A model generated the notes under the pieces. That model did no database searches. It was not told where the DNA came from and worked only from the letters and a program-made list of their open reading frames with translations. The translations under genes and the position numbers were made by a program. Positions 1 to 13,766 of a DNA stretch of 45,680 bases are shown here, in pieces. Position 1 is the stretch's first letter. Every line of letters starts with the position of its first letter. This DNA comes from Nanobdellota archaeon (GTDB lineage: Archaea; Nanobdellota; Nanobdellia; Woesearchaeales; JAHJEM01), in the NCBI GenBank assembly GCA_043805315.1, contig JAZDID010000120.1:1-45680 (forward strand). Reading direction: 5' to 3'.

Positions 1-169
1 CCTCTCCTGTCGGATTTTCATTAGTCGATGCTGGAGAACTTGTCGTGTTCGTCTTTTTCATCCTGGCTATCTTCAATTTTATCAGGGCATGCTCACCTAC
101 GAAATAAAAAAAACAGAAACCTTTTTATACCTCTATTCTCAGGAATACCTGCAGTGTAAGGTGTAGAGT

Positions 170-1306
170 GTGAAACAGCACAAGCTCGCAGGATTAGGCG
201 TATTTCTAGCTTTCCTGTTCTTGCTGTATTTTCCTGCTGTGTCTGCAGACCTGATGCCTGATGTGGTCAAGAACGCGCTCATGGGCCTGTTTCCCGGCAG
301 GATTCCTGACGAGTACCTGCAGCGCACGATATTCTGGCTCTTGATGTTCACTGTGCTGTTTTTCGCAGCAAATTTCGCCTTCAAAGACAAGGATAACCCG
401 AAGCGGTTCAACAATATCAGGGTCGCGATCGCCATGATAGTCGCAGTCATCTCTGCCATCGGCGTTCCTGCACCGATATTGTCAAAGATCTTCACCTCCT
501 GGGGCTGGGCCTCAGGCCTTTTAATTCTTGGAGTTCCTGTGCTCGGCATACTTTACATTGGCCACCTGATGCCCCGTGATGAGGCGAACCAACGGTTTAG
601 TTCAGGCGTGCGTGCAGTCATGTTCCTCCTCGCCATGGTCCTGATCAGCGCAACGCTCGATGCCCTGAACGGGTTTGCAGTGGCAAATCCCCGGGACTTC
701 TCGCTTTCAGACCTTGGCCAGCTCCTGATATTCTTCTTTTTCATCATGGCAATCATCAACGGCATCAGGGCAATATTCGGCGGGAATTTCGGCAACGCCT
801 CAGCAGGAGGCCTGAATCTCGGAGGGACACCTTCAGGAACTGCCCCAGCGCCAACCACGCCGACAACGCCTGCAACGCCAACCACACCCACAACACCGAC
901 GACTCCGACACCACCTGCCTATCCTGTCCATCTCAGGAACATTGTCAATAACATCGGCCTTGCATTGAACCAGTACCGCAACACCTTAAACGCGTATATC
1001 AGTGCAGGAAACAACATCCTTGTGGAGAACGCCATGGGACCGCCTTCAACAGCTGCAGACTGGAACCTGCTCTGGCAGCAGAACAACAACCTGCTCGCAA
1101 TCCAAGGGACGCTCGACAACCTCTTCAACCAGCTCCAGGGAGATCCTGGATTCCCCAACTTCAACATTCCTGCAGACATCGCAGCACTCGCACAGTGCAT
1201 CAACAGGAGAACAGCCTATTATCAGGTCTATGCAAACTACCTCATCGATTTCACCAACAGGTTCAACACCTTCATGGTGCCCGCAGTCGCACCTACGATA
1301 CCATAA
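170..1306 (+). CDS. Secreted/multi-pass membrane protein with Pro/Thr-rich linker and N/Q-rich helical C-terminal domain; no family recognised
   Basis: GTG start at 170, with GGTG at 160-163 six nt upstream and a TATA-like TTTTTATA at 122-129. Signal-like N-terminus LAGLGVFLAFLFLLYFPAVSA followed by about 5 more hydrophobic helices. Linker TPSGTAPAPTTPTTPATPTTPTTPTTPTPP (nt ~835-925), then a ~140-aa N/Q-rich tail. Confidence 0.7.
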   Translation: MKQHKLAGLGVFLAFLFLLYFPAVSADLMPDVVKNALMGLFPGRIPDEYLQRTIFWLLMFTVLFFAANFAFKDKDNPKRFNNIRVAIAMIVAVISAIGVPAPILSKIFTSWGWASGLLILGVPVLGILYIGHLMPRDEANQRFSSGVRAVMFLLAMVLISATLDALNGFAVANPRDFSLSDLGQLLIFFFFIMAIINGIRAIFGGNFGNASAGGLNLGGTPSGTAPAPTTPTTPATPTTPTTPTTPTPPAYPVHLRNIVNNIGLALNQYRNTLNAYISAGNNILVENAMGPPSTAADWNLLWQQNNNLLAIQGTLDNLFNQLQGDPGFPNFNIPADIAALAQCINRRTAYYQVYANYLIDFTNRFNTFMVPAVAPTIP

Positions 1307-1310
1307 CCAC

Positions 1311-2165
1311 ATGGCCAGCACACCATCAACAGGAAAGAGCATCACGCCAGAACAGGCAGAACAGCTCAAGCAGACAGTCAAGAATGCAAAGCTCGCGCCT
1401 GCAATAGAGAGCTTTGTCAGTCATCTCCATCTTATGTTCAAGAAGACCTCGAGCAAAGACCTGCAAGAAGTCATCAAGCAAGCGCTGAAACACCTTGAAG
1501 AGACGCTGAAGAATGCGAGGAAGCTGGACGGAGTGGGAGTTGCGCCTGGAAAAGAAAAAGAGGGAAAAGAGAAAAAAGTTAAAGAGATGCTTGAAAGCAC
1601 TGGCACTAAATTGAAGGGAGCTGGAGACTTCTTAAAAGCGGGCATTGGTCATCTGGCAAGACGGATGAAGACACTTTTTGGCAAGAAGGAATATACACCT
1701 GAAGAAGTGCGGCAATCGCTCACCAGAGTCTCTCTTGATGTGAATGAAATCCTTGACAGGTTCGGAAAAAAGCTTTTGGAATCAAAAGATGAATTGGATC
1801 ACATTGCCGGTTCGCTCAAAAAAGGGGCAGACCTTCCTCTTATTGACATCCATACCATCCCTAAAGAGGAACTCATCAAGCTCTGCGTTGACCAGAGTGA
1901 TGCGATTGCAAGATTCATTTCTGAAGTAGTCATGATGCGCAGCGCTCTTGATGCAAAATTTAAGGAACTTTTTGACCTGCTAGCTCCTGAAAATATTCCG
2001 CCAGAGTCTGATAAGAGAAAAAAGTACCTCTATGGCATTATGGAAGAGTACGAACAATTAGTCGATAACAGAGTCCTGCCGCGGCTTGCCCAGATTAGCA
2101 ATGTTTTAGAAGGGCAAATCCTGGACAGGATATCCTATGCAGTCAGAAGGATCAATACAACCTGA
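1311..2165 (+). CDS. Hypothetical K/E-rich coiled-coil protein (284 aa)
   Basis: The ORF track gives 1002..2165, but 1002-1306 overlaps the previous gene in another frame. ATG 1311 lies 4 nt after the TAA at 1304-1306. The sequence is helical and charged. Its C-terminal motif LLAPENIPPESDKRKKYLYGIMEEYEQL resembles the product of 3348..3842. Confidence 0.6.
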   Translation: MASTPSTGKSITPEQAEQLKQTVKNAKLAPAIESFVSHLHLMFKKTSSKDLQEVIKQALKHLEETLKNARKLDGVGVAPGKEKEGKEKKVKEMLESTGTKLKGAGDFLKAGIGHLARRMKTLFGKKEYTPEEVRQSLTRVSLDVNEILDRFGKKLLESKDELDHIAGSLKKGADLPLIDIHTIPKEELIKLCVDQSDAIARFISEVVMMRSALDAKFKELFDLLAPENIPPESDKRKKYLYGIMEEYEQLVDNRVLPRLAQISNVLEGQILDRISYAVRRINTT

Positions 2166-2277
2166 TTAAGAAAACAACCAATTCTCAGATTCTGAACTAT
2201 CGTTTATGCGTCTCATAAATTCATTTTTCATTGTTTTTAGCCATTTTAAGACTGCATTTTCCACCCAAATAGAAACA

Positions 2278-2287
2278 TTTATAAATA
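2278..2287 (+). promoter_or_regulatory. TATA box upstream of the 2340 gene
   Basis: TTTATAAATA lies 53 nt upstream of ATG 2340, which itself has an SD, so the transcript is leadered. Confidence 0.45.
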
Positions 2288-2339
2288 TGTAATCACTACA
2301 TAGTAGAAAATCATTAGTTTACTGGAGAGGGCTGAAAAA

Positions 2340-3134
2340 ATGGCAAACGACATTATTCCACATGACACGAAACTCAATATATCTGTACCGCCATACGCAA
2401 TTTTTCCATTAAAAAAAATATATCGACATGCTCGAACTATTCTTGGTCAGACCGATGAAAATATCACATCTTATGAAAACCTACGATTGGAAGCGGCGGA
2501 GAACCGAAAAAAAGTTGAAGAGGAGTTGTATGATGCGAGGAAAAAACAGGTCATTGTCTATTCTGCAAAAGGTGCTGCTGAGGTCCGTATTAAGGGAGAT
2601 GACGCGGACATAGCCACAAGCGAAAAGCAAAAGCAAGATCTTCTCGAAATCACAAAAAAAAGTCTGGGAATAACAAATTTAAATCCTGAACAAGAATCTC
2701 TGTATCATTGGTCTGCCCTGCAAATCCAAACAGAAACAGATTCATTAAAAGCGCACAGAAAACTCAATGAAGAGGATCTTGAGACAAGAACACTTGACGT
2801 CGGGAATAGCGATCGCCGGGTTGCCTCATTGGAAAGTGAGCGAAGAGCCTATCAATCCCAGGAGATACAGTATGGCATCTTAGAGGATATGCGCAGGGAC
2901 TTTTTCAGGAATTCCCATATTCGATACAGCTTGGAAAATGTTGTTTACAGGAATCCAGTCTCCTTCAGAAGACAGCTCCAGGAAAAAGTTGAGCACTTCT
3001 TTACAAGAATCGGCGTCAAAAAGCCGAAATATGCTCGCCTTCCACAGCGAGTCCTTAACGCCATTCCTGCTGAAGTGAAGGTTGTTTCTGAGTCACAACC
3101 TGCTCCCGCTGTGGATTCAGGCAAAAAAGCATAA
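2340..3134 (+). CDS. Hypothetical charged/coiled-coil protein (264 aa)
   Basis: ATG 2340 is preceded by the SD-like GGAGAGGG (2324-2331) and by TATA TTTATAAATA (2278-2287). A T8 tract directly follows the stop codon. No family motif recognised. Confidence 0.65.
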   Translation: MANDIIPHDTKLNISVPPYAIFPLKKIYRHARTILGQTDENITSYENLRLEAAENRKKVEEELYDARKKQVIVYSAKGAAEVRIKGDDADIATSEKQKQDLLEITKKSLGITNLNPEQESLYHWSALQIQTETDSLKAHRKLNEEDLETRTLDVGNSDRRVASLESERRAYQSQEIQYGILEDMRRDFFRNSHIRYSLENVVYRNPVSFRRQLQEKVEHFFTRIGVKKPKYARLPQRVLNAIPAEVKVVSESQPAPAVDSGKKA

Positions 3135-3135
3135 C

Positions 3136-3150
3136 TATTTTTTTTGTTTA
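3136..3150 (+). terminator. Oligo-T terminator candidate
   Basis: A T8 run at 3138-3145 lies immediately after the TAA at 3132-3134. Confidence 0.5.
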
Positions 3151-3347
3151 ACTTTTGACTACAACCATTTGTTATCATTCTATTCGCACCCATCATCTTT
3201 TTCTCCTCTTAAAACCGGAAACTTCAGTCTTCCCGCCGGAAAGATCCTGGAATCCCTGTGATTTCTCCGGAAAAATCTCCGCAATTCTTAAATTATTCAC
3301 TACACTCTACACATAGAAGAAAAATTACGTGTGCCGAGGTGATTTCC

Positions 3348-3842
3348 ATGTTTTTTAAAAGAACACTAACATTGGAAGACCAAACGAGATCCTTGGAGCT
3401 TGTCCACCGTGATATGAGGACGTTCATGTCGGGATTTGTTGAATGTATGCAAAAGGGCAAGGACGTGCTGGAACAGAGATTACAAGAGCCTCACTCCCTC
3501 ATTTATGGTTGCGGACCTGCTGACGTGGATTCACAGCACGCAACAGCATCGATACTGCAGGAGCGCAAAGGGCAAATCGACAGCCATCTCACAGAAGCTG
3601 ATGCCTACTTCAAGACCATGGAGGAAACCTACACCCGCATCAAGAAAAAGCTCCAACCTGAAAACATGCCCGCCGGGATGCTCGAAAACAAGAAACAACG
3701 TCGACAATACTTCCGCAACCTCGAAAAAGAATACGTCGGTGAATGGGCAGGCATCTTCAGGCGACTTTTCGAGATTGATCAGCTTTATTGCCAGAGTGTC
3801 ATGGCTGAGCTTGATGCATCAGCACAGGAGGTGAACGTATGA
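3348..3842 (+). CDS. Hypothetical protein (164 aa), distant paralog of the C-terminal half of the 1311..2165 product
   Basis: The ORF run starts at 3258 (GTG), but ATG 3348 carries GAGGTGA 6 nt upstream. Motif KLQPENMPAGMLENKKQRRQYFRNLEKEY parallels LLAPENIPPESDKRKKYLYGIMEEYEQL in the 1311..2165 product. Confidence 0.6.
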   Translation: MFFKRTLTLEDQTRSLELVHRDMRTFMSGFVECMQKGKDVLEQRLQEPHSLIYGCGPADVDSQHATASILQERKGQIDSHLTEADAYFKTMEETYTRIKKKLQPENMPAGMLENKKQRRQYFRNLEKEYVGEWAGIFRRLFEIDQLYCQSVMAELDASAQEVNV

Positions 3843-4309
3843 TATACACGCCAATGGTGGAGATTGAGTATCGTGCAGTCCCGAGAACGCACAGGAAATT
3901 TTATCGGGATATGGCGAAGTCTCATAACGCGATTACTATTCGCTGGATGAAAATGACGTGTAATTTTGAACAAAAAGCAGAGACGGAATATAAGAAAATT
4001 GCATCGATTGACTCAAAAATCAGGAAGTATGAAGATGTGCGATTTAAAATTTATTCTCAGGCATTCCTATCGAATTACGAGGAACAAGACCGCTATCATG
4101 CATTTCCCCGACTCAGTCAACTTGAAGATGACCTTAACAATCTCCGACAAGAAAGAATCGTGCATGAGGAACTCGCTTCATTACATCAGGAAGCTGCATC
4201 CAGGTCGGAAAATAAAATGTGTCATTTGCCTCATCTCTTTTCATATATGAAGGTCAAGTTCGAATATGACGGCTTGGTTGACCGGGTGCGTGATTACCTC
4301 AGGATATGA
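3839..4309 (+). CDS. Hypothetical protein (156 aa), translationally coupled to the upstream gene
   Basis: ATGA start/stop overlap at 3839-3842, with a strong SD GGAGGTGA 4 nt upstream. Charged helical sequence, no family recognised. Confidence 0.6.
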   Translation: MIYTPMVEIEYRAVPRTHRKFYRDMAKSHNAITIRWMKMTCNFEQKAETEYKKIASIDSKIRKYEDVRFKIYSQAFLSNYEEQDRYHAFPRLSQLEDDLNNLRQERIVHEELASLHQEAASRSENKMCHLPHLFSYMKVKFEYDGLVDRVRDYLRI

Positions 4310-4320
4310 AAATATGAATT

Positions 4321-4620
4321 AATGGCTCATGCAAGATATCGTCGGCATTGCTTAAAAGTTTTAGCAGCCATTTCTCGACGACAAAATGCGGCATTTTCTG
4401 AAGTGTGAACACCTCTCTGCACAAAAACACCCCTCCAATTTCTATTTGTTAAATGCTGTTATATGAAATATGTTATGCGCTGTTTTAATTTTGTTAGATG
4501 CTGTCATATAAATAGTTATACGCCATCGTTAACTGCTGTTTATTTATCAACCAACATATTTAGCAACCGATAGATTTATTAATCAATATATATAATAATC
4601 AATATATCTGATGAACAATA
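4321..4620. repeat. Left arm of a mirror-image repeat array (13-mer GTTRNNYGCTGTY x4, then CAACCAA/AATCAATATAT boxes)
   Basis: 13-mers at 4448-4460, 4472-4484, 4493-4505 and 4528-4540. TATTTATCAACCAACATAT (4541-4559) is the 17/19 reverse complement of 6544-6562. CTTAAAAGTTTTAG (4351-4364) is the 13/14 reverse complement of 6654-6667. The arm lies in a convergent gap between the gene ends at 4309 and 4704. Confidence 0.8.
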
Positions 4621-4671
4621 AATGAAATCTCTTAAAACCTTTAAGCATCTCTCATACTTTTTTGCCGACGA

Positions 4672-4699
4672 GAAAAAAGAAAAAATGATCCTAAAAAAG
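4672..4699 (-). terminator. Oligo-T tracts downstream of xerA (archaeal-type terminator candidate)
   Basis: Plus-strand A-runs at 4673-4678, 4681-4685 and 4693-4698 read as T5-T6 runs on the minus strand, immediately after the TAG stop at 4704-4706. Confidence 0.45.
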
Positions 4700-4703
4700 A
4701 ATT

Positions 4704-5516
4704 CTACAAACTGTCGAACGGGCTCTTGACCTTCTTCAATTCCTCACGCGAGATATGCGTGTAGATCTGCGTTGTCTGCAGGTTCGCATGGCCCAAGAGT
4801 TCCTGGATCATCCGGATGTCTGTTCCTGCCTCAAGCAAGTGGGTGGCAAAGCAGTGCCTGAGCGTGTGCGGCGTTACTTTCTTCTGGATGCCTGCCTTCT
4901 CTGCCGCGTGCTTGATGATCTTCTGCACATTCCTGGGTGTCAACGGCCTTCCTTCCTTGCCTGGAAAGAGAGATGCGGCCGGCTTGAGATCCTTCTTGTG
5001 CTCCACAAGCTCATGCAAGAGCGTTTCTGGCAGGATGAACATCCTGTCCTTTCCCCCTTTCCCTTTCCTGACCCAGCCGATCTTCTCTGAGGGCTCGATA
5101 TCTCCTGCCTTCAGCGATAACAGCTCAGAAATCCGCAAGCCAGAGGAATAGAGCAGTCTCAGCATCAGAGAGCTCTTCCTGTTGTTCAGTGCCCCGAAAA
5201 GCTTTTTCACATCCTCTTTCGAGAGTACCACAGGAAGCTTGCGTTCAATTTTAGGTGTCTTGAAATTGATGATCTCCTTTTTCAAGACATCAACATAGTA
5301 GAACTTCAATGACGCCTTAATAAGGGCAAGGCTCGAGTTCGCCATTCCCTTGTCTGAAAGCATATGCGCCAGATAGGATTTGATGTCCTGCTCTGTCACC
5401 TCTGCAGGCTGCTTCTTTGCAAAGCCCAGGAAGCGCTGGTTATGATAAAGATATGTTTGGACAGTCTTCTGACTAAAGCCCCTGAGTTTAAGCTCTGTGC
5501 TAAGATCTTCAAGCAT
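4704..5516 (-). CDS. xerA: Tyrosine recombinase, XerC/XerD/archaeal XerA type
   Basis: 270 aa. The N-terminus is a core-binding region. The catalytic domain carries GLRISEL, HTLRHCFATHLLEAGTDIRMIQELLGH and QIYTH (Tyr nucleophile). A minus-strand TATA (plus-strand TATAAAAA, 5539-5546) lies ~23 nt upstream of the ATG. Confidence 0.92.
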   Translation of the reverse strand: MLEDLSTELKLRGFSQKTVQTYLYHNQRFLGFAKKQPAEVTEQDIKSYLAHMLSDKGMANSSLALIKASLKFYYVDVLKKEIINFKTPKIERKLPVVLSKEDVKKLFGALNNRKSSLMLRLLYSSGLRISELLSLKAGDIEPSEKIGWVRKGKGGKDRMFILPETLLHELVEHKKDLKPAASLFPGKEGRPLTPRNVQKIIKHAAEKAGIQKKVTPHTLRHCFATHLLEAGTDIRMIQELLGHANLQTTQIYTHISREELKKVKSPFDSL

Positions 5517-5700
5517 GCCAGATTCCTGGAAACACCACTATAAAAAGGTTCGCATTTTAAAAAATTTTCAAAGTCATTAATTGATGGGATTTTGACTTAA
5601 AAGCCTGGCTTTGTACAAGAAATACTCCTTTCGAAGGCCAAACCCTATTAAACTCATTAAAATTTCTCGACGACAAAGCGATAAAAGTTCGTATAAGAAG

Positions 5701-5885
5701 TATTAGGCGAACAAGAAATTTATGGTTATTTCTGGAAGATTCTTGAAATAGTAATCTAAATAGGATCCCTTCCCCTTCTTCTTTTCCGGATTGTTCTCAC
5801 CTCAAACTTCCTCTAGCCGCTTCCTGTTTTGGAATGTCCCCACCCGCCGCCCCCGACCACCACCTAGAAACGTGTAATGCACTAC
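5701..5885 (+). repeat. C-rich intergenic repeat, copy A
   Basis: Contains TTAGGCGAACAAG, CTTTTCCGGATTG, GAATGTCCCCACCC (5832-5845) and CCCCCGACCACCACC (5850-5864). It is collinear with copies at 6653-6800 and 20503-20675. Confidence 0.75.
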
Positions 5886-6100
5886 GTCAAGAGCAAGTAT
5901 ATCACCACAAGAGTTTATAGAAAAAAACATCCTCATATGCCAGAGGCATACTCATTGGACCGAATTCACAAAGTATTGGCGATTCAGGTTACCCCGACAA
6001 TATTTTTCCCGCCTTTTAGGTTTTGTCGGTGTCAAAACTTTGGCGTTTTTAGGCAAATTCTAAGCATGAAAGTTTCAATCGCTGATTAAAGGTTTTGATT

Positions 6101-6433
6101 TTATTTTTTGACTGTTTTTTTTGGCGCTTTTAAGTATGGCTGGAGGCCGTGCATGTATGTCCCGATGTGGGAATACGTCATCTTGAGCTCTTTCCTGCCC
6201 TCTTCAGTCAAACTATACACTTTCCTCCTGCCGAACCGCTTGTTCTGGACAAGCCTCAGTTTTCGAAGCTTTTTTAGGGTGGGATAGATCGTGCCGGGTG
6301 TGAGCTGGCTTCCTCTTCTGCTGCCGATTTTCTTGGCAAGATCTTCCCCGGAAAGGCCCTTCAGGCTGATCTCGTGCAAGATCAAAAACGACAAAAAACC
6401 CTTGAATTCCAGCTTCAGGGGGCCTGTCTTCAT
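6101..6433 (-). CDS. PadR-family winged-helix transcriptional regulator
   Basis: Motifs LSFLILHEISLKGLSGEDLAKKI...GTIYPTLKKLRKLRLV...YSLTEEGRKEL. The ORF run extends to 6457, but an AT-rich TATA-like box (6458-6470) abuts that ATG. The second ATG at 6433 (MKTGPL...) therefore fits a leaderless start. Confidence 0.85.
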   Translation of the reverse strand: MKTGPLKLEFKGFLSFLILHEISLKGLSGEDLAKKIGSRRGSQLTPGTIYPTLKKLRKLRLVQNKRFGRRKVYSLTEEGRKELKMTYSHIGTYMHGLQPYLKAPKKTVKK

Positions 6434-6463
6434 GCCTGTTTCTGGAGGAGAGGTCATTTAAAT

Positions 6464-6700
6464 ATTTATTGGTTGTAAAACATATAGATTGCCAGATGTG
6501 TAGATTGGTAAATTTATTGGTTGAACAATATATTGTATGATAGATATATTGGTTGATAAATAGATATATAACAGCGCTCAACAGAACAGCGTATGACATT
6601 TTTGGACAGCGTACAACAGAACAGCGCTCAACAATTCACGAATGGTGAGGGTTCTAAAACTTTTAGGCAAAACACGCAAACTCCGGACGAGAAATTATGA
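6464..6700. repeat. Right arm of the mirror-image repeat array (ATTGGTTG boxes, then AACAGCGCTCAAC-type 13-mers)
   Basis: ATTGGTTG at 6468-6475, 6516-6523 and 6548-6555. ATATATTGGTTGATAAATA at 6544-6562. 13-mers at 6570, 6585, 6605 and 6620. CTAAAACTTTTAGG at 6654-6667. The motif order is the reverse complement of 4321-4620. Confidence 0.8.
6570..6632 (+). promoter_or_regulatory. Four tandem 13-mer boxes (AACAGCGCTCAAC x2 exact, AACAGCGTATGAC, GACAGCGTACAAC); candidate protein-binding sites
   Basis: Boxes start at 6570, 6585, 6605 and 6620 (spacing 15/20/15 nt), upstream of padR on the opposite strand. The exact 13-mer recurs at 32969 and 32999. Confidence 0.6.
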
Positions 6701-6800
6701 GTGTGGCATCACTAACCACTGCCCCTGCCCAACAACTGCAGTTGAATGTGCCCACCTGCCAGCCCCCACCACCCACCCTTGGAAATGGCGAAATATGACA
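6653..6800 (+). repeat. C-rich intergenic repeat, copy B
   Basis: Contains TTAGGCAAAACACG, AACTCCGGACGAG, GAATGTGCCCACCT (6744-6757) and CCCCCACCACCCACCC (6763-6778), in the same order and orientation as copies A and C. Confidence 0.7.
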
Positions 6801-6847
6801 GGTGATATGAACAGAAAGGCCAGAAATAACACGAATTTGCCGCATTA

Positions 6848-7408
6848 TTACGTGCATATCTCCTTGGCAATGGCCTCGTTGATCCGGAGGATGTTCTGCT
6901 TTGCCTGGACCATCTTGAAATGCTGCTCGAGGAGATAGATATGTTCATCAGTGTGGAGCTCTTTGATGAGCGGGATGCCCTTGGAGATCATGTTCTCCAC
7001 ATATTCCTGCACCATCTGCTCAGTGAAGCCGAGGCGCTTCGCGATCTGGCGCACTGTGACTCGTTCGCCTGCATAGATGACCATGAACACCTCCTGCTCG
7101 CGGTGGGTCAGCTCGATCCGTGCAGAAACTGTCTTCTTGATCCGCTCAGGAAGGAGCATCATCTCGATCGCGTCCAGGCGCTCAGAGAGCTTGTCGATCT
7201 TTCCCTCAATCTCAGCCAGGTACTCGTAGTTCTGCTGGATCTCAGAGGTGTTCTGGTTGATCGTGTCCAGGTGCTCGTCAAGCTCTTCCTTGATAGTTGA
7301 GAGGGATTCCCTGAACTGAGAACCGAGCTTCTCGACTTCTTGACGTACATCTATGTCTTTCAGCAAAAATACTTCACCCCAACTGGAAAATGCTATGCAA
7401 CAGCTCAT
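6848..7408 (-). CDS. Coiled-coil protein with C-terminal HTH (LuxR/GerE-like) domain, putative regulator
   Basis: N-terminal heptad-like charged region. The C-terminus ELTHREQEVFMVIYAGERVTVRQIAKRLGFTEQMVQEYVENMISKG resembles an LT-x-RE-x-EV ... HTH module. The start is uncertain because a TATA-like box abuts ATG 7408. Confidence 0.6.
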   Translation of the reverse strand: MSCCIAFSSWGEVFLLKDIDVRQEVEKLGSQFRESLSTIKEELDEHLDTINQNTSEIQQNYEYLAEIEGKIDKLSERLDAIEMMLLPERIKKTVSARIELTHREQEVFMVIYAGERVTVRQIAKRLGFTEQMVQEYVENMISKGIPLIKELHTDEHIYLLEQHFKMVQAKQNILRINEAIAKEICT

Positions 7409-7495
7409 TTAAATAGTTTGTTATGCTTGAAACTATATGTTTTGGGGCTTGAAAAGAAGTCATCGACGAAGGGATACTAGATGTAGTGGTATCAT

Positions 7496-7891
7496 TTAGT
7501 AGGATTCTATCTTCAGCTCTTCAATCCTCCTGAAATGAGTCGTGTTCCGTGTCAATATGGTTTCACGATGGATCTTGGCTATGCCTGCAATCAAGCTGTC
7601 TTCAGGATCAATGACTTTTCCTGATTCTTTCAAATATGCATGGATGGTGCCTGCCTCTTTTGCAGCAGGAATATCAAAGGAATACGTGGCGAGCGATTCC
7701 AATAACAGGCGTATCTTCAACCTCTTCTTTTCATGAGTCAAACTGCCGACTCCCTGCCAGATCTCAAATACAGAAACAGTTGTGGTTGAAAGAGGGATGT
7801 TCCTCTTTTCAAGCTCCTTAATCCTTCCTATAATGTCAGGCTCTCCCCGCAAGAGATCAATCAGGGCTGTGGTGTCAAGAATCACGATCAC
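7496..7891 (-). CDS. vapC: PIN-domain ribonuclease toxin VapC
   Basis: 131 aa with N-terminal IVILDTTALIDLL (acidic D) and a later DPEDSLIAGIA acidic motif. Typical PIN length. GTGA start/stop overlap with the upstream antitoxin ORF. Confidence 0.88.
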   Translation of the reverse strand: MIVILDTTALIDLLRGEPDIIGRIKELEKRNIPLSTTTVSVFEIWQGVGSLTHEKKRLKIRLLLESLATYSFDIPAAKEAGTIHAYLKESGKVIDPEDSLIAGIAKIHRETILTRNTTHFRRIEELKIESY

Positions 7892-8109
7892 TCACTTCCT
7901 GCAGCCCGTTTCCTGCTCAGGGTTCTCGCTGCTTTCACGTCGTTTTCTAGCGCATCTGCTTCTTCGCTTGTCAAGAGACCGCTGAACTCAAGAAGGCTGA
8001 CTTTATTCGTTATCTTATTGATGACGTCGCTGAAACTCTCTTTTTCGTTTTTTTTTGCCATGAGCCGTTCATAGGTTTCTTCAGTTATGGAGATGGTCTT
8101 GGTTGCCAT
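7888..8109 (-). CDS. vapB: VapB-type antitoxin
   Basis: 73 aa. TISITEETYERLMAKKNEKESFSDVINKI matches the archaeal VapB antitoxin pattern. It overlaps vapC by 4 nt. A TATA-like TTTATATATTTTT (plus coordinates ~8142-8154) lies upstream on the minus strand. Confidence 0.8.
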   Translation of the reverse strand: MATKTISITEETYERLMAKKNEKESFSDVINKITNKVSLLEFSGLLTSEEADALENDVKAARTLSRKRAAGSE

Positions 8110-8173
8110 GTATGGATGTATGTGTATGCAGTTTATATATTTTTCGATTTATACACTCACTGGGATTCATCGA

Positions 8174-8181
8174 TTTTATAA
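8174..8181 (+). promoter_or_regulatory. TATA box for the methyltransferase gene (leaderless spacing)
   Basis: TTTTATAA ends 26 nt before ATG 8207. Confidence 0.5.
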
Positions 8182-8206
8182 GTTTCTTAACATTTCATTA
8201 TTTATT

Positions 8207-8842
8207 ATGAAGAATATCTCCAAATCCAGCCTTGCCATCCTGCTCTCCCGGCTCAAGACTTTTGAAACGCCATCCTTGAAGGCAGAGCAATACACGACAG
8301 ACTCTGAAATAGCAGCGACAGCGCTCTGGGACGCCTATATGAAAGGATGTATCAAAGGAAAAACAATAGCTGACCTTGGCTGCGGCACAGGAACGCTAGG
8401 GATAGGCTGCCTGATTCTCGGAGCTGGAAAAGTGTATTTTATTGATAATGATAGCGCAGCCCTGGAAAGTGCCAAAGAGAACCTTTCCTTTGCTGAAAAG
8501 CTGGTGAAAACACGGCTGAGCGCAAAGGCAGAGCTCTTGCACAAGGACATTGCTGATTTTCATACTCCTGTTGATCTTGTGGTGCAGAACCCTCCATTTG
8601 GCACGCGAAACAAAGGTGCAGATCTTGCATTTCTGATGAAAGCAATGGGGCTGTCTCCACTAATCTATAGCTTCCATAAGGCAAGCACATTGGATTACCT
8701 GCAGAAGTATGTTGCTAGGCAGGGGTTTTCAGTGGTGCAGGCAATGAAGTTCACCTATCCTCTTAGCCAGACCATGCGCTTCCATAGGAAGAGGATAGAG
8801 CGGATTGAGGTCGTGTGCCTGCATATTGTGAAAAGAAGATGA
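8207..8842 (+). CDS. SAM-dependent methyltransferase, COG2263/METTL5-like predicted RNA N6-adenine methylase
   Basis: Motif I DLGCGTGTLGIG and motif IV VVQNPPFGTR. The ORF run begins at 8087, but MKNISK at 8207 follows a TATA box, and the upstream residues look non-coding. Confidence 0.85.
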   Translation: MKNISKSSLAILLSRLKTFETPSLKAEQYTTDSEIAATALWDAYMKGCIKGKTIADLGCGTGTLGIGCLILGAGKVYFIDNDSAALESAKENLSFAEKLVKTRLSAKAELLHKDIADFHTPVDLVVQNPPFGTRNKGADLAFLMKAMGLSPLIYSFHKASTLDYLQKYVARQGFSVVQAMKFTYPLSQTMRFHRKRIERIEVVCLHIVKRR

Positions 8843-8866
8843 TAATGGAAATCTCCTGTAACAAAC

Positions 8867-8876
8867 TTTATAAATA
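8867..8876 (+). promoter_or_regulatory. TATA box for rpoL
   Basis: TTTATAAATA ends 22 nt before ATG 8898. Confidence 0.5.
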
Positions 8877-8897
8877 ACCCCTTTTTTCAGCCTCTTC

Positions 8898-9176
8898 ATG
8901 GAAATAACTGTTCTCGAAAGCTCGAAGAAACGGCTTGTCTTTGAATTGAAAGGCACTGACCATACGTTCTGCAATGCGCTCAAGAAAGAGCTCTTGAATG
9001 ACAAAACCGTTACCATCGCGACGTATTCCATCCGCCACCCGTTGATTGCCATCCCCAAGTTCATCATCGAGACAACAGGCAAGGATCCGAAGAAAGTGCT
9101 TGCCGACGCAGCACAGCGGCTGAAAGAACAGAACTCTGAGTTCCTGCAGAAGTTCAAAAGGATGATTGCGAAGTGA
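8898..9176 (+). CDS. rpoL: DNA-directed RNA polymerase subunit L (Rpo11)
   Basis: 92 aa. MEITVLESSKKRLVFELKGTDHTFCNALKKELLNDKTVTIATYSIRHPL matches the Rpo11/RpoL fold signature (G-x-DHT-x-x-N ... HPL). Confidence 0.85.
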   Translation: MEITVLESSKKRLVFELKGTDHTFCNALKKELLNDKTVTIATYSIRHPLIAIPKFIIETTGKDPKKVLADAAQRLKEQNSEFLQKFKRMIAK

Positions 9177-9271
9177 ATCTCTCTTGATTTCTATTCATTT
9201 CGTCTTAGACGCCACCAAAGGCGCAGCAGTCAAACAGCTTCTTGAAATTACTCACGCGTAAACCCAAACTC

Positions 9272-9278
9272 TTATAAA
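9272..9278 (+). promoter_or_regulatory. TATA box for the polyprenyl synthase gene
   Basis: TTATAAA ends 23 nt before ATG 9301. Confidence 0.45.
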
Positions 9279-9300
9279 CAACCTTTTATCATTCCCCTCG

Positions 9301-10380
9301 ATGAACCCCCTGATTACCCAATTCAAGCAACAGCTCGATCCTGTCCTCGAGCACTATCTTGACCAGAAGATCAGGCAGCAGGACAATATTCTGGTCAAGC
9401 AGATGTACTCTGTCCTGAAAGACTTCACCATGCGCTCAGGAAAGCGGATCAGGGCAAGCATCACCTATCACGGCTACGCGTGCATCGCAGACATCCCGAA
9501 AAAAAAAGAGAAGGACCTGCTCTTCGCCTCAGGAGCGATCGAGATCATCCAGTCCTACCTGCTCATCCACGACGACATCATTGACAGGGATGTCCTGCGG
9601 AGAGGAGGGCCGACTGTCCATACCTTCTACCAGCGCCTGTTCAAAGAGATGCTCAATGACCACAAACATGCAAGAGCGCTCGACCAGCATCTCGGCACCA
9701 GCTTTGCCATCCTCATCGGAGACCTTGCCAACGGGCTTGCACAAGACATCATCCTGAACTCGCGGTTTCCAGACAAGGCCAAAACCCTTGCTGCTGAAGC
9801 CATGAATTCCCTGACCCTGGAAGTCGTGCATGGCCAGGCACTTGATATCGTCGCCGAGATCGACCGGAATCTCACAGAAGAGGACGTGCTGAAGATCCAA
9901 GGCTTGAAGACAGCCAAGTACACAGTCGAGGCTCCCTTCATGATTGGTGCGATTCTTGCAGGCGCAAATGAACAACAGAAGAAGACGATCTCAGCATTTT
10001 CCAAGCCGCTCGGCCAGGCATTCCAGATCCAGGATGACATCCTCGGCATGTTCGGCAATGAAGCTGAGACAGGAAAGTCTGCGATGTCAGACCTGAAAGA
10101 AGGCAAGATGACACTCCTCATCGTGAAAGCCCTGGAAAAAGCAAACCCGAAAGAGAAAAAGATTATCCTCACTGCATTAGGTAACTGCGCGCTTACTCCT
10201 GCTGAACATGCAGCAGTCAAGCGGATTGTCCAATCAACCGGCTCGCTGGACTATTCCAAAAAACTCGCGAAAAAGCTCTGCAACCAGGCATATGCGATAC
10301 TGAAGCAAGGGAACTTCAGGAGAGAAGGGGTGGATTTCATCCGCACCATCGGAGAATGCATTGTCAACAGGACAACATAA
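9301..10380 (+). CDS. idsA: Trans-polyprenyl diphosphate synthase, probably geranylgeranyl diphosphate synthase
   Basis: First aspartate-rich motif LLIHDDIIDRD, second FQIQDDILG. Tyr five residues before the first motif suggests a short (C20) product. Confidence 0.88.
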   Translation: MNPLITQFKQQLDPVLEHYLDQKIRQQDNILVKQMYSVLKDFTMRSGKRIRASITYHGYACIADIPKKKEKDLLFASGAIEIIQSYLLIHDDIIDRDVLRRGGPTVHTFYQRLFKEMLNDHKHARALDQHLGTSFAILIGDLANGLAQDIILNSRFPDKAKTLAAEAMNSLTLEVVHGQALDIVAEIDRNLTEEDVLKIQGLKTAKYTVEAPFMIGAILAGANEQQKKTISAFSKPLGQAFQIQDDILGMFGNEAETGKSAMSDLKEGKMTLLIVKALEKANPKEKKIILTALGNCALTPAEHAAVKRIVQSTGSLDYSKKLAKKLCNQAYAILKQGNFRREGVDFIRTIGECIVNRTT

Positions 10381-10388
10381 TACAAGTA

Positions 10389-11102
10389 TCACTTCCCGAA
10401 CCTTCTCTGCCTGTGCTGGTATTCCTGGATGCACTCGACCAGGTCTTCCTTCTCGAACTCCGGCCATTTCTTCTCAAGAAAAATCCATTCGCTGTAATTG
10501 CTCTGCCAGATCAGGAAATTCGAGGTGCGCCTTTCGCCGCCGGTCCTGATGATCAGGTCAGGCTCAGAATTCAGGTTTAGATGGTCAGAGAACAGCTCCT
10601 CGTTGATCTTCTCGACATCAATCTCACCCATTTTTGCCTCTGCCGCTATCTTCTTGACAGCGTCCAACACCTCTTCCCTCCCGCCATAGGCCATGGCGAA
10701 GTTAATGAGGTACTTGTCATGCTTCTTTGTCTTTTCCATGATCTCCTGCATGAGCGCGTATATCCGTTGAGGGAACATCTTGATCCTGCCGATGAACCTG
10801 ATCCGGATCCTGTTCTCGTCAATCCTCTTGTCCACGAGCAATTCCCGTGCAGCATCCTCGAACAGCTGCATGATGTAGTTGAACTCCTCTTTTGGCCTGC
10901 TGAAGTTCTGGATTGAGAACGCATACAGGGTGACTTCGTGGATCTTGAGGTCACCGCACCATCCTATCAATTTCTTTACCTTCTCCTTGCCCCATTCATG
11001 GCCTTTCCAGGGCTTGAGCATGAGCTGCTTGGCAAACCGCCTGTTGCCGTCAAGGATGATGCCGATGTGCCGAGGCACGTTCTCTGGAAATTTCTCTTTC
11101 AT
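10389..11102 (-). CDS. uppS: Cis-prenyltransferase (undecaprenyl/dolichyl-type diphosphate synthase), archaeal type
   Basis: Motifs HIGIILDGNRRFA, YAFSIQNFSRP and RTGGERRTSNFLIWQ. Convergent with idsA across an 8-nt gap. Confidence 0.92.
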   Translation of the reverse strand: MKEKFPENVPRHIGIILDGNRRFAKQLMLKPWKGHEWGKEKVKKLIGWCGDLKIHEVTLYAFSIQNFSRPKEEFNYIMQLFEDAARELLVDKRIDENRIRIRFIGRIKMFPQRIYALMQEIMEKTKKHDKYLINFAMAYGGREEVLDAVKKIAAEAKMGEIDVEKINEELFSDHLNLNSEPDLIIRTGGERRTSNFLIWQSNYSEWIFLEKKWPEFEKEDLVECIQEYQHRQRRFGK

Positions 11103-11122
11103 GGCATTTTAAAAATAGAAGT

Positions 11123-11137
11123 GGTTTATAAATATTA
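11123..11137 (-). promoter_or_regulatory. Promoter box GGTTTATAAATATTA upstream of uppS
   Basis: The TATA core lies ~23 nt from ATG 11102. An identical 15-mer occurs at 13821-13835. Confidence 0.55.
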
Positions 11138-11157
11138 CTGATAATTGATTTATTCTC

Positions 11158-11709
11158 CTAGACTTCAGCCCTGCAGTCTGGGCAGACCAGAGAGCCTTGC
11201 TTCTCAGAGATCTCTTCAGAAACCTCGCCGCAGATCTCGCAGATGCCCTGGTGCGCGACGCGCTCGTAGACCGGCTTCTTGGTCTCCTCACGCAGCTCGA
11301 TCTTCTCGACGATGATGTCAAAAAGCTGCGGCTCTATCTTCAGGATGTCCTTCAAGGTGATGAAGCCGATGAGCTTCTTGGTGCTGTCAATGACCGGCAG
11401 GTGCCTGATGTCATTGTCCCGCATCATGATCAGCGCGTCATAGATGTCTTTCTCAGGAGAAATGGTGACGAGCTTGGTCGTCATGACCCTGGAAACAGGA
11501 GTTTTTTTCACGTCAAGGTCAGAGATGACTGCTTTCCGCACAATATCCTCCTCTGTCACGATTCCCTTGATCTTGTTCCCTGCGCTGACGAGTATCGAGC
11601 CGATGTTGTGCTTCTCCATCAGCTTGGCGCAATCCCTGACAGAAGTGTCCTCTGTTGCCGTGACCGGCTTGGTCGTCATGCCATCATGGACTGTGAAGCC
11701 TGTCTTCAT
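11158..11709 (-). CDS. CBS-pair domain protein with C-terminal zinc ribbon
   Basis: Two CBS motifs (..NIGSILVSAGNKIKGIVTEEDIV.., ..IRHLPVIDSTKKLIGFITLKDIL..) and a CEICG...CPDC ribbon. The ORF track starts at GTG 11718, which lies inside the SD AGGTGGA, so ATG 11709 is the more likely start. Confidence 0.85.
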   Translation of the reverse strand: MKTGFTVHDGMTTKPVTATEDTSVRDCAKLMEKHNIGSILVSAGNKIKGIVTEEDIVRKAVISDLDVKKTPVSRVMTTKLVTISPEKDIYDALIMMRDNDIRHLPVIDSTKKLIGFITLKDILKIEPQLFDIIVEKIELREETKKPVYERVAHQGICEICGEVSEEISEKQGSLVCPDCRAEV

Positions 11710-11820
11710 GATTTCCACCTAAAACCCATAATTTATGCAGGTAGAGGCTTTTTGGTTTAAATACATTGTGGTGCTAGAAAGAAGTGATGGCAAAAAAAGC
11801 AAGAATTACCTGAGAAAGCA

Positions 11821-11843
11821 ACAAAAAAAGAAAAAGTGAAAAA
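11821..11843 (-). terminator. Oligo-T tracts after the nucleotidyltransferase gene
   Basis: Plus-strand A7, A5 and A5 runs (11823-11829, 11831-11835, 11839-11843) read as T-runs on the minus strand, directly after the TAG stop. Confidence 0.45.
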
Positions 11844-13766
11844 CTAATAGTTCACCAGTATCTCCACGTCCCTGCCGAAGATCTGCTTGAGGTTCTCGAA
11901 GATCGGCTCTTTCACAAAGACTTTCGGCGGGATCTCGATCTTTACAAGAGCCTGCTCGAGTTCTTCCACTGTTGATTTCCGTATGTTCGCGAGCGAGCCG
12001 TCCTGCTTGATCTCTCCGCGCGAGATCTCCTTCTCCTCATGGTCAATGTCGTGGATGATGAACGCGTGCTCTCCTAAGAGGATGACCTCGCCGTACTTGT
12101 CGCCGTGCTTCACCCTGATCTTTGTTCTCTCGAGCTCGCGGCCGCGCTTGCGCTGGATGTACTCGATCAGGAACTTGATAAGCTCGCGGCCTTTCTTTGT
12201 CACGTTCTGGATGTCGGTCTTGCTCAGCTTGCGTTCGTCATAATCCTTCTTCGCCTTGATCAATTCCTTGAGCATGCGCAGGAACTTCTCCGGGATCAGG
12301 CCTTTCTTGACCAGGCTGTGCTCGAATGCGTCGACGATTGATTCATCCTCGACTTTCTCGATGTTGCCCTCGATGCGCATGATATCCCTGATAATGGTCA
12401 CGACCTGCTCGTACGTGTGCAGGACAGACTCTTCCTCCCGCTTCTTCTCGATCTGCGTGAACAACTTATTCAGGCGCTTGAGGAATTTCTCAGCGTCGCT
12501 CAGGAACGTGTCCAGGTCTGCGCCGGTCAGGTCTTTCTTGTCACCGTGCTCGAGATCCTTCCGCAGCTGGATATTCCGTTCGAGTATCTTGACATACTCT
12601 TCTTCCAGGAGCTTCTCCTTCTTGACAAAGATCTCATTGAGCAATTGGGGAGTCTCCTTTGGCGTAGGTGGAGGGATGCCGTACATCATCAATGCTGCCT
12701 GGCTCGGCGTCAACAATGCATAGAACAGGTCTTCCATGCCCAATTCCTTGATCCTGAACTTCACCCGCTCGATCATCTGGTCTCCGGTGTGCATGAACAT
12801 CTCGATCGCTTCAGGGCTCGGCTTCACTTTTCCCATCTTCAAGAGCTGCTTCCAGGGCATGAAAATACCTCTGTCATAGAAGGGAATCCCGTCCCTGAGG
12901 AATGTGAATATGATAGGATTAGCTTCCTTGATATTGTCCCAGAAGTCTGTCAGGATGTAGACTTGGATGTTGATCTTGTTCTCGATCCCGGTCATCTTGC
13001 CTGCGTCATAGCCCATACCGATGATGATCGCTCGTAATTTGTCTTTCAGCTCTGCACGGGTCATCTTCTTCACATCCGTGTCATCAATGACAATGAAGAC
13101 GTCGATGTCTGACTTCGGCGTGGCCTTTCCCTGCACCAATGAACCTGCAAGCACATAGCAGACAATGTACTTCTCGAACTTCTTCAAGACCATGGTCTTG
13201 TGCACTTCAGAGATCTTGATGGCTGCAAGCATGCCTTTGTCATAAATCGGCGCAGCGAGCGAGATCATCTGCAGGAGATCGTACTTCGCGTCATAGCAGG
13301 ATTGCCAGAGCTCTGACAAGAGCATGGTGTCTGGCAGCAGGTTCTTGTCAACCTCTACTGCGATGGAATCAATGATCTTCAGCAGCTTGTCCTTGAGCTC
13401 ATACTTCGGCATCTTGGTGCTGTCAGAATCATCCACCAATATCAGGACATTTATCTTATCCTTCTCCTTTAGATCCTTGCTCGGCGGCAATAATGCGATG
13501 CCCATGATGTACTCGGCAAACTTATCCATGACTTTTTTCTTGAACTTCTCCAATACCTCTTTGAGCTCTTCGAGTTTCTTTTTTGCCTCTTCAGGAATAT
13601 CCTGCATAGCCGTGAGCTCCTTCCTTGATTCGTCCTGCAATTCCTCCATAGCCTGCTCAGCATGGCCAGGATGCCTTGGAACAGTCTGCGCTGGCAGGGC
13701 AGCTGCAGGAGTTATCTTGTGCTCTGAAGAAATTTTCTTTGGCGTTTGCCGGTGCTTTTTAGACAT
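11844..13766 (-). CDS. Tandem Pol-beta-type nucleotidyltransferase-fold protein (degenerate plus canonical domain) with long helical C-terminal region
   Basis: Canonical motif AGSLVQGKATPKSDIDVFIVIDD. An upstream degenerate copy, INVLILVDDSDS, lacks the G-S. The ORF run starts at 13787, but ATG 13766 carries AGGTGAT 5 nt upstream. Confidence 0.72.
   Translation of the reverse strand: MSKKHRQTPKKISSEHKITPAAALPAQTVPRHPGHAEQAMEELQDESRKELTAMQDIPEEAKKKLEELKEVLEKFKKKVMDKFAEYIMGIALLPPSKDLKEKDKINVLILVDDSDSTKMPKYELKDKLLKIIDSIAVEVDKNLLPDTMLLSELWQSCYDAKYDLLQMISLAAPIYDKGMLAAIKISEVHKTMVLKKFEKYIVCYVLAGSLVQGKATPKSDIDVFIVIDDTDVKKMTRAELKDKLRAIIIGMGYDAGKMTGIENKINIQVYILTDFWDNIKEANPIIFTFLRDGIPFYDRGIFMPWKQLLKMGKVKPSPEAIEMFMHTGDQMIERVKFRIKELGMEDLFYALLTPSQAALMMYGIPPPTPKETPQLLNEIFVKKEKLLEEEYVKILERNIQLRKDLEHGDKKDLTGADLDTFLSDAEKFLKRLNKLFTQIEKKREEESVLHTYEQVVTIIRDIMRIEGNIEKVEDESIVDAFEHSLVKKGLIPEKFLRMLKELIKAKKDYDERKLSKTDIQNVTKKGRELIKFLIEYIQRKRGRELERTKIRVKHGDKYGEVILLGEHAFIIHDIDHEEKEISRGEIKQDGSLANIRKSTVEELEQALVKIEIPPKVFVKEPIFENLKQIFGRDVEILVNY

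Follow-up and report, generated by a model that had tools for sequence, protein, structure and literature searches.

Mirror-image repeat arrays around padR, a predicted dif site and xerA in a Woesearchaeota-related contig

The contig JAZDID010000120.1 (assembly GCA_043805315.1, Nanobdellota archaeon) comes from a metagenome-assembled genome of a DPANN archaeon whose nearest relatives are Woesearchaeota. It was analysed whole, and this stretch of 45,680 bp is referred to below as the window. Within 2.4 kb it carries padR, encoding a PadR-family protein, xerA, encoding a tyrosine recombinase, a predicted dif site between the two genes, and two repeat arrays (arms) bracketing them in mirror-image orientation (Table 1). 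The right arm overlaps the padR promoter, and the left arm lies between convergent genes.

The recombinase matches the NCBIfam equivalog NF040815 (recomb_XerA_Arch) with 267.2 bits against a cut-off of 220. Its top PDB match is XerA of Pyrococcus abyssi (4a8e, E=8e-50), and it shares about 60% identity with thousands of Woesearchaeota proteins. Judged by these matches, the enzyme is a bona fide housekeeping archaeal XerA. PDB matches of the PadR protein are PadR-family proteins, and an identical 110-aa protein is present in NCBI; exact-protein look-ups made with the window XerA and PadR returned no match.

The repeat arrays and the predicted dif site

An earlier note on this DNA had described mirror-image repeats of about 200–300 bp on either side of the two genes. 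The arrays proved to be real, and every feature listed for them was recovered in its place. Local alignment of the reverse complement of 4321–4620 with 6464–6700 scored 55 (z=12.9); 500 dinucleotide shuffles gave 20.1±2.7 and at most 32, and the same alignment in direct orientation gave 23. A separate repeat finder returned inverted arms of 70 nt (4541–4610 and 6493–6562, 74% complementarity) and of 22 nt (4348–4369 and 6649–6670, 86%). The inverted repeat 4541–4559/6544–6562, for which 17 of 19 matching positions had been claimed, in fact matches at 18 of 19; the outward homology between 4351–4364 and 6654–6667 is 13/14, as had been claimed. The AT-rich box TATTGGTTG occurs at 6467, 6515 and 6547, and reverse copies with one mismatch are found at 4548 and 4564. 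Each arm contains four 13-mers that are separated by strand, all minus in the left arm and all plus in the right (8/8), and their pattern has 22 matches in the window against 3.0±1.8 expected. Spacing of the 13-mers is unequal (25/20/35 in one arm, 15/20/15 in the other), so the likeness of the arms, about 70–75%, is one of motif content and order and not of recent exact duplication. The GC content of the arms is 25% and 32%, compared with 51% for the contig.

Read outward from the genes, the left arm consists of motif B, motif A, boxes, 13-mers, B and A, and the right arm of the padR TATA box, boxes, 13-mers, A and B. Motif A has the consensus tGCTTAAAAsTTTTAAGCa; across 86 A sites its information is confined to 17–19 bp with 6-bp half-sites, and the window has only three copies in 45.7 kb (4350, 4630 and 6652). 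As far as sequence conservation can tell, this pattern is operator-like and unlike that of a Xer core site. The boxes follow the family consensus tCwATwTATTGgwTAa, the core of which, CAATATATTG, is itself nearly palindromic. Motif B (TTTCTCGACGACAAA), a second type of palindrome that the earlier note overlooked together with the dif site, is a near-palindrome around CGWCG; it has 5 matches in the window against 0.29 expected and always lies 7–30 nt from a motif A or from dif.

Two other roles for motif A were considered and rejected: that of a general promoter, given just 3 sites per 45.7 kb, and that of dif itself, given that the information spans only 17–19 bp with the centre most conserved and that the real dif is elsewhere. 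The coding sequence of xerA itself also has motif-A-like 17-mers, which recur at two places, around nt 320 and nt 500 (L019 5722, L070 4100, L077 4014, L079 1685 and L067 1565; the prefix L denotes fetched loci). They may reflect a conserved L-K-x-F-K-type peptide written in AT-rich codons, or internal operators. Motif B is also found at L012 4472, L016 2091, L062 5661 and L087 ~5725, and is conserved even in L016, with its 23% GC. Together with an upstream TATA-like box or motif A, it makes up four promoter- or operator-like units in the window, all facing the plus strand and antisense to xerA, padR and hth6848.

The predicted crossover site of XerA is a 28-bp sequence of 11-6-11 architecture. 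Located between genes, it lies upstream of xerA, at 170 bp from the start codon, and has a motif B 8 bp away; its arms are symmetric at 8 of 11 positions. Searches with ATAA-N6-TTAT and with the Thermococcus kodakarensis dif sequence had found nothing because the right arm of the window site starts with TTAG; the family was recovered by a symmetry-based scan of all fetched loci for 11-6-11 sites. The template NNTTCGNNTAA-N6-TTANNCGAANN has exactly one match in the window, at 5686–5713 and without mismatch, and the template core TTCGNNTAA-N6-TTANNCGAA has this as its sole window match (0/14 mismatches), against 0.03 in dinucleotide shuffles. When a position weight matrix (PWM) is built from the dif arms of other genomes, the window arms rank first and second of 91,000 positions, and as a pair they score 31.3, the runner-up in the window 13.5.

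Of 86 loci, 31 have homologous dif sites upstream of xerA (34 matches against 6 expected), usually one per locus, copy number being judged from 45.7 kb of the window genome and about 12 kb per relative. They are also present in L087 and L089–L091. An example from L075, ACTTCGCATAA TATACA TTATGCGAAGT, is close to bacterial and archaeal dif, and closer relatives have the variant TTGTCGTACAA TGTATA TTATATGACAC, located 20–60 bp upstream of xerA. We propose AGTTCGyATAA-TGTATA-TTATrCGAAcT, with the TTGTCGTACAA variant, as the putative dif consensus of Woesearchaeota, which would be the first found for this group; in the library searched, we found no literature linking DPANN archaea or Woesearchaeota with XerA or dif. 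In Woesearchaeota the predicted dif is linked to xerA, as has been reported for Sulfolobales and haloarchaea (PMC2958812, PMC11840125), and the predicted Xer/dif core of the window belongs to the known archaeal XerA type.

In most relatives dif is located 5–10 nt downstream of a TATA-like box facing xerA (L074 3440–3486, L062 5675–5722, L027 5873–5917). XerA bound to dif should therefore occlude its own promoter, implying autoregulation. The window has a second TATA-like box nearer to xerA (5539–5546).

Table 1. Coordinates of genes, predicted sites and repeat motifs at the locus
Feature	Position	Strand	Remarks
Three genes of unknown function	2340–4309	+	last one ends at 4309
Motif A, outer left	4350–4366	.	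17-bp palindrome GCTTAAAAGTTTTAGCA; one of three A-type sites in the window
Motif B, copy 1	4371–4385	.	near-palindrome TTTCTCGACGACAAA; identical 16-mer at 5662–5677
Four 13-mers RACAGCNNNNNAC, left arm	4448–4540	-	at 4448, 4472, 4493 and 4528; dif-half-site-like, pointing away from dif
Five tandem 16-bp boxes	4541–4620	-	TATTG cores read on the xerA strand
Motif A, inner left	4630–4646	.	TCTTAAAACCTTTAAGC
Motif B, copy 2	4661–4675	.	TTTGCCGACGAGAAA
xerA	4704–5516	-	housekeeping archaeal tyrosine recombinase, 270 aa; Pfam SAM_4 and Phage_integrase; NCBIfam equivalog
Non-coding gap, xerA to padR	5517–6100		580 bp
TATA-like box, putative xerA promoter	5539–5546	-	TTTTTATA on the minus strand, 23–30 nt upstream of the xerA ATG; assigned by reading the sequence
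Motif B, copy 3	5663–5677	.	8 bp from dif; B–TATA–dif arrangement also in L062
dif, 28 bp, 11-6-11	5686–5713	+	AGTTCGTATAA GAAGTA TTAGGCGAACA; predicted XerA crossover site
padR	6101–6433	-	PadR subfamily-2-like, 110 aa; ATG at 6433, longest open reading frame reaches 6457; Pfam PadR E=2e-11
TATA-like box, putative padR promoter	6459–6466	-	abuts the first box of the right arm; position conserved in L087, L089 and L090
About six boxes of 16-bp period	6464–6562	+	ATTGGTTG / ATTG cores
Four 13-mers RACAGCNNNNNAC, right arm	6570–6632	+	at 6570, 6585, 6605 and 6620, pointing away from dif
Motif A, outer right	6652–6668	.	TTCTAAAACTTTTAGGC
Motif B-like	6683–6697	.	CCGGACGAGAAATTA; conserved as TTTCTCGTCTGG in L087
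hth6848	6848–7408	-	helix-turn-helix protein
VapBC pair	7496–8109	-	
Methyltransferase, rpoL, polyprenyl synthase, uppS	from 8087		

Occurrence in related archaea

Similarity to XerA was the sole criterion for a set of 65 loci, PadR (67–74% identity) led to closer relatives, and a metagenome scan blind to proteins looked for an A core with three boxes at 16-bp spacing. The latter returned 20 loci, in 19 of which xerA and/or padR adjoins the array; the full mirror-image layout is found among them in L066, L069, L084 and the pair L072/L075. Many of the loci fetched by XerA have a repeat cluster directly after the xerA stop codon, and an inner motif A follows this codon also in L011, L016, L019, L060, L069, L087 and L091. 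The order of a minus-oriented array, padR, dif, xerA and a plus-oriented array recurs in L011, L016, L066, L069, L084, L072/L075 and L087, so that the paired layout is present in at least seven other Woesearchaeota. In L011 and L016 two mirror arrays of the form A – 4–5 boxes – A lie upstream of padR and downstream of xerA, with 3–4 unrelated genes and dif between them.

The genomic context of the window, uppS–rpoL–methyltransferase–hth–padR–xerA, is shared by L087/L088, L089, L090 and L091. The padR-side arm of L087, L089 and L090 follows the window order (B-like, A, two 13-mers, 6–8 boxes, TATA box); that of L091 keeps the box array, has a degenerate A and lacks 13-mers. On the xerA side, L087 has three 13-mers, boxes and an inner A, and L091 has boxes and an inner A. 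For L086, a relative with a 78%-identical hth6848, the contig stops short of the arm. The exact 13-mer was absent from the first 85 loci and turned up only in the closer relatives reached through PadR.

Genes outside the arrays are syntenic across L011/L069/L084/L072–75 (72–87% XerA identity) and across the window, L087, L089 and L091. Between padR and xerA there are 0 to 4 miscellaneous cargo genes; no replication or partition genes are listed among this cargo or among 72 neighbouring open reading frames (ORFs), and a topoisomerase IA gene, found in two loci, does not adjoin the arrays. Interiors are rearranged in L062, L019 and L077, where xerA still has A-containing arrays on either side. 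The possibility that the two arms evolve in concert was considered and does not hold generally, orthologous arms being up to 0.89 alike compared with 0.76–0.85 within one genome. The orientation of xerA relative to hth6848 and padR, co-directional or convergent, is interspersed on the XerA tree (L001–L062; a quick neighbour-joining tree with no support values), which suggests repeated local inversions of the xerA–dif block in Woesearchaeota evolution.

Presence of the arrays goes with padR. In the set of loci chosen by xerA and spanning 6 kb or more, box arrays are found in 4 of 7 loci with padR and in 0 of 41 without it (p=1.8e-4), and two or more A sites in 5 of 7 and 2 of 41, respectively (p=2.4e-4). 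In size and half-site geometry motif A matches the operator of Bacillus subtilis PadR, which in the PadR–DNA structure spans 18 bp as 6-6-6 (PMC5728393). The PadR subfamily-2 includes AspA, an archaeal protein that coats DNA rather than acting as a simple repressor (PMC5728393). Co-occurrence, operator-like geometry and the AspA precedent together make PadR the prime candidate binder, and we predict that it binds motif A and/or the boxes. The sidelining of PadR in the earlier note was thus mistaken, as arrays are found only with padR nearby and the 17-bp palindrome fits an operator of a PadR dimer (PMC5728393). Its argument that simple promoter-proximal autoregulation by PadR cannot account for an arm located between convergent gene ends holds for the left arm. 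Relatives such as L082 and L070 have an A site between their boxes and the start of padR; in the window it is the box array that lies next to the promoter, and the nearest A is about 200 bp upstream.

The 13-mers resemble half-sites of dif. Their inner 7 bp are common to the dif arms of the same genome, as CGCACAA in L087 and CGTACAA in L089, and the window heptamers are mostly identical to the window dif arms at 5–6 of 7 positions. The summed longest common substring between 13-mers and dif arms is 25, against 17.3±2.0 for random 11-mers of the same loci (p=0.004, in a post hoc test on four genomes), and when scored with the dif-arm PWM, each of the eight 13-mers of the window ranks within the top 2%. 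XerA is accordingly to be named as a possible binder of the 13-mers, as a lead and not a result.

Possible roles of the arrays

We favour a composite reading, to which we give a probability of about one half: the arms would be conserved protein-binding arrays that bracket a dimer-resolution unit, padR–dif–xerA, both regulating dif–xerA and enclosing it architecturally. They are most likely accessory and regulatory arms of the Xer/dif system, not crossover sites themselves. Of the four options raised in the earlier note, it is the accessory arms of a Xer/dif-like site that fit best, given a dif between the arms, a bona fide XerA and a conserved layout; the invertible segment, the terminal inverted repeats and the origin were not supported. 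In the proposed mechanism PadR would bind the palindromes and/or boxes of both arms, and XerA or another factor would bind the 13-mers. The promoter-proximal right arm would serve to autoregulate padR and, with it, the downstream xerA. The two coated arms might then form a bridged or insulated nucleoprotein domain around dif, which would control when and how XerA acts there. Comparable arrangements have been described: in Thermococcales, conserved AT-rich sequences and inverted repeats flank dif, and a partner protein was proposed to bind them (PMC2958812), DNA surrounding dif in T. kodakarensis forms a boundary for SMC (structural maintenance of chromosomes) complexes when bound by the winged helix-turn-helix filament protein TrmBL2, and in haloarchaea dif lies upstream of the xerA operon (PMC11840125).

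Several points weigh against this composite reading. Most sampled xerA loci have neither padR nor arrays, which makes the device an add-on and not part of the Xer/dif core, and pairing of the arms is not obligatory, as L089 and L090 have no xerA-side arm. The arms are separated from dif by 751 bp (right) and 1066 bp (left), with genes between, and by 1.2–2.6 kb in relatives; cer, psi and other classical accessory sequences lie immediately beside the core. Because the cores of the boxes are almost palindromic, it is chiefly motif order and the 13-mers that define the polarity of the arrays; the likeness of the 13-mers to dif half-sites was assessed post hoc. Which protein binds which motif is something that we infer from sequence. 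Finally, P. abyssi XerA recombines dif in vitro without partners (PMC2958812).

This last property, in archaea that lack FtsK, leaves open how dimer resolution is kept to the right substrate and time (PMC2958812), and in Thermococcus DNA around dif that is bound by a winged-helix filament protein has a chromosome-organising role that does not depend on XerA (PMC11840125). We speculate, and regard it as doubtful, that PadR and the two arrays with their XerA-half-site-like 13-mers constitute a control device for dimer resolution without FtsK, a bridged or polar cage around dif giving XerA directionality or timing, or trapping forks or SMC complexes. If such trapping at dif were true, archaea would here have their first fork trap or boundary module that is defined by sequence and comes with a dedicated protein. 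The locus offers a compact, sequence-defined candidate for a dif partner system in DPANN archaea, and its parts are small enough for in vitro tests with purified proteins although the organisms are uncultivated.

Other explanations account for some of the same features. One that we consider unlikely is a polar barrier, in which mirror arrays coated by a PadR-like winged-helix protein act as orientation-dependent roadblocks flanking dif, either as a fork trap, in the manner of Tus/Ter or RTP/Ter, or as a site of SMC stalling or unloading, comparable to TrmBL2 at the T. kodakarensis dif or to XerD at the XDS sites of B. subtilis. It would explain why the polar elements are mirror-symmetric about dif, with all eight 13-mers pointing away, why the xerA-side array lies between convergent genes, where no promoter is needed, and why the bracket around dif–xerA survives interior rearrangement (L062, L019, L077); a dif-associated, XerA-independent boundary formed by a winged-helix filament protein is also documented (PMC11840125). 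However, Pfam, NCBIfam and PDB sequence searches with PadR, hth6848 and neighbouring proteins gave no Tus or RTP match, and the single arm of L089 and L090 does not suit such a barrier. To our knowledge, there is no known archaeal fork trap. GC and AT skew to the left and right of dif shows no consistent flip in 17 loci, and the cumulative skew of the window has no turning point at the locus. We likewise find it improbable that the arms are two independent regulatory regions without joint function, alike only through a common regulator. On this account the right arm would simply combine the promoter/operator of padR with a divergent promoter serving a small ORF at 6697. The left arm would be a separate cluster of operators, acting, e.g., on a non-coding or antisense transcript or as a roadblock to transcription where xerA ends. 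Overlap of the right arm with the padR TATA box agrees with it, as do the promoter-like units of A plus B followed by ATG, which are direct copies (4630–4687 and 6652–6699), the retention of the padR-side arm only in L089 and L090, and the finding that an arm can resemble its orthologue in another genome more than the opposite arm of its own. Against it stand the xerA-side array, which tracks the xerA stop in many genomes even where padR points elsewhere (L019, L077, L060) and which faces a convergent gene and so drives no protein-coding gene, and the lineage-specific 13-mers, gained by both arms in mirrored order (window, L087).

The remaining explanations treat the arms as recombining, replicating or mobile DNA. 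Recombination between the arms, whether homologous or by a site-specific reaction at motif A or at a box, could flip or excise padR–dif–xerA. A tyrosine recombinase between inverted repeats, the 18/19 inverted match, the varying orientation of xerA and the single motif A at the junction of an inverted xerA–dif block in L062 and L079 would all suit it. We nevertheless hold it to be very unlikely: the true XerA substrate, dif, is single and internal, motif A with its 17–19 informative bp and most conserved centre is unlike a Xer core, and the arms are too divergent for near-identical short crossover sites. The canonical orientation is moreover stable across a clade with 72–87% XerA identity, the tree that suggests otherwise lacks support values, and two close relatives have one arm only. 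A replication origin with an iteron-like or origin recognition box (ORB)-like array, or a partition site of centromere type to which an AspA-like PadR binds, would agree with the AT-rich arms and with phased direct repeats flanked by palindromes. In some bacterial origins, bipartite box clusters flank the initiator gene. AspA itself is a PadR-type centromere-binding protein of archaea (PMC5728393). Such a role appears highly improbable, since the arrays go with padR and dif–xerA and not with replication genes. Families of orc1/cdc6, parA, parB or SMC are absent from the scanned window ORFs (254–21858) and from the 25 families listed, of 59 found, for 72 ORFs neighbouring 14 array-bearing loci, a single-member match among the 34 unlisted families being possible. 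By eye, without a formal pattern search, the boxes and 13-mers are also unlike the TCCAnnGGAAA-type ORB or mini-ORB core. Long terminal inverted repeats of a small mobile element carrying the recombinase would be in line with inverted arms that flank a recombinase gene, with a padR–xerA cargo of 0 to 4 genes and with the different genomic contexts of the cassette in distant clades. Such an element is extremely unlikely: within clades, synteny extends to the genes on the outer side of both arms (no search aimed at target-site duplications was made), the recombinase is a XerA equivalog with its own dif, and the window has no second copy. The array pattern has no match in 2.9 million viral contigs, and matches to plasmids and phages concern only the catalytic domain of the recombinase, none of them the arms.

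The favoured reading, accessory and regulatory arms of dif–xerA, can be compared with systems already known. Archaeal Xer/dif systems of Thermococcales, T. kodakarensis, haloarchaea and Sulfolobales likewise have one XerA and one 28-bp 11-6-11 dif linked to xerA, and the AT-rich, repeat-bearing inverted flanks of dif were there suggested, or shown, to be bound by a winged-helix protein other than Xer (PMC2958812, PMC11840125). The present locus differs from them in having discrete composite arrays of about 200–300 bp at 0.75–1.07 kb from dif on both sides, with padR and xerA inside the bracket and a dedicated PadR gene in the unit. Its motifs (A palindrome, 16-bp boxes and 13-mers) appear to have no relation to the motifs described for Thermococcales. 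In the TnpI IRS of Tn4430 and Tn5401, direct-repeat accessory motifs stand beside an inverted-repeat core. As in this system and in cer/psi (PepA/ArgR/ArcA; PMC2958812), the recombinase gene adjoins its own site, and there are extra repeated motifs, some of them core-half-site-like, thought to impose selectivity and to double as operators. Unlike those motifs, which directly adjoin a single side of the core, within about 200 bp, the arms described here are two-sided, about 1 kb away and in mirror image, and most of their motifs are not recombinase-like. Too far from the core and two-sided, they fall outside the cer/psi-type definition and would, if functional at all, be closer to the partner-binding dif flanks of Thermococcales (PMC2958812) or to the T. 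kodakarensis boundary (PMC11840125). The two-sided composite arrays and the dedicated PadR appear to be what is new here, the predicted Xer/dif core being of an already known family.

Resemblances to regulatory and terminator systems are looser. The lambda operators OL and OR are two mirror clusters of ~17-bp palindromic operators, about 2 kb apart, which bracket the repressor gene. As in these and in other long-range looping operators, one cluster overlaps the promoter of the candidate regulator itself; in contrast to lambda, the bracket encloses a recombination site and a recombinase, the distal array faces no gene, and the arrays also contain phased direct repeats and half-site-like 13-mers. 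In the Tus/Ter and RTP/Ter systems, the terminator gene lies beside a Ter site and is autoregulated by it. Polar sites opposed on either side of dif are a common trait, seen here in the sequence, whereas there is no homology, and the arrays lie within about 1 kb of dif and not over hundreds of kb. Dif-half-site-like elements near dif are also known from B. subtilis as the XerD-binding XDS sites (cited in PMC11840125).

Neighbouring genes and minor features

An Rfam search of 1–12000 gave no match, no tRNA genes were found, and a sigma-70 promoter and terminator scan was uninformative, the host being an archaeon. The gene hth6848 encodes a 186-aa protein with a coiled coil and a C-terminal helix-turn-helix domain, for which only sub-threshold matches to GerE, TrmB and sigma-70 region 4 were obtained. 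Only 65 homologues were found in 5.8 billion proteins, all DPANN-type, and the gene is syntenic with the methyltransferase gene, rpoL and often xerA. The protein is a candidate binder of motif B or of the 13-mers. Between hth6848 and the methyltransferase gene lies the VapBC (PIN/VapB) pair, which is located elsewhere in L089 (4162–4732) and absent from L086, L087 and L091; it is thus a mobile insertion in a neighbourhood that is otherwise conserved.

The GC content of the window is 40–51% in the first 21 kb (1–21000) and 53–58% beyond (23000–45680). The second part contains giant ORFs of 3592 aa (21954–32732) and 1523 aa (32779–37350), and a third is probable, no long closed ORF being called from ~37.4 kb to the contig end. 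An exact 13-mer, AACAGCGCTCAAC, occurs twice at 32969–33011, 30 bp apart and with the inverted GCTGTTCAAC between, in the 5′ part of the giant ORF 32779–37350 just ahead of a predicted signal peptide. More exact or near-exact copies (30713, 38942 and 44798) are found in other giant ORFs, where they read as T-A-L-N codons. These 13-mers may serve the same factor as operators, or they may be a coincidence of coding.

Downstream of motif B copies there are two plus-strand C-rich tracts (5836–5868 and 6748–6780), G-quadruplex-prone on the minus strand. A 33-aa ORF, MSVASLTTAPAQQLQLNVPTCQPPPPTLGNGEI (6697–6798), and a frame ending in ...LECPHPPPPTTT* have a C-x-PPPPT motif in common, which could represent a peptide, an RNA element or chance.

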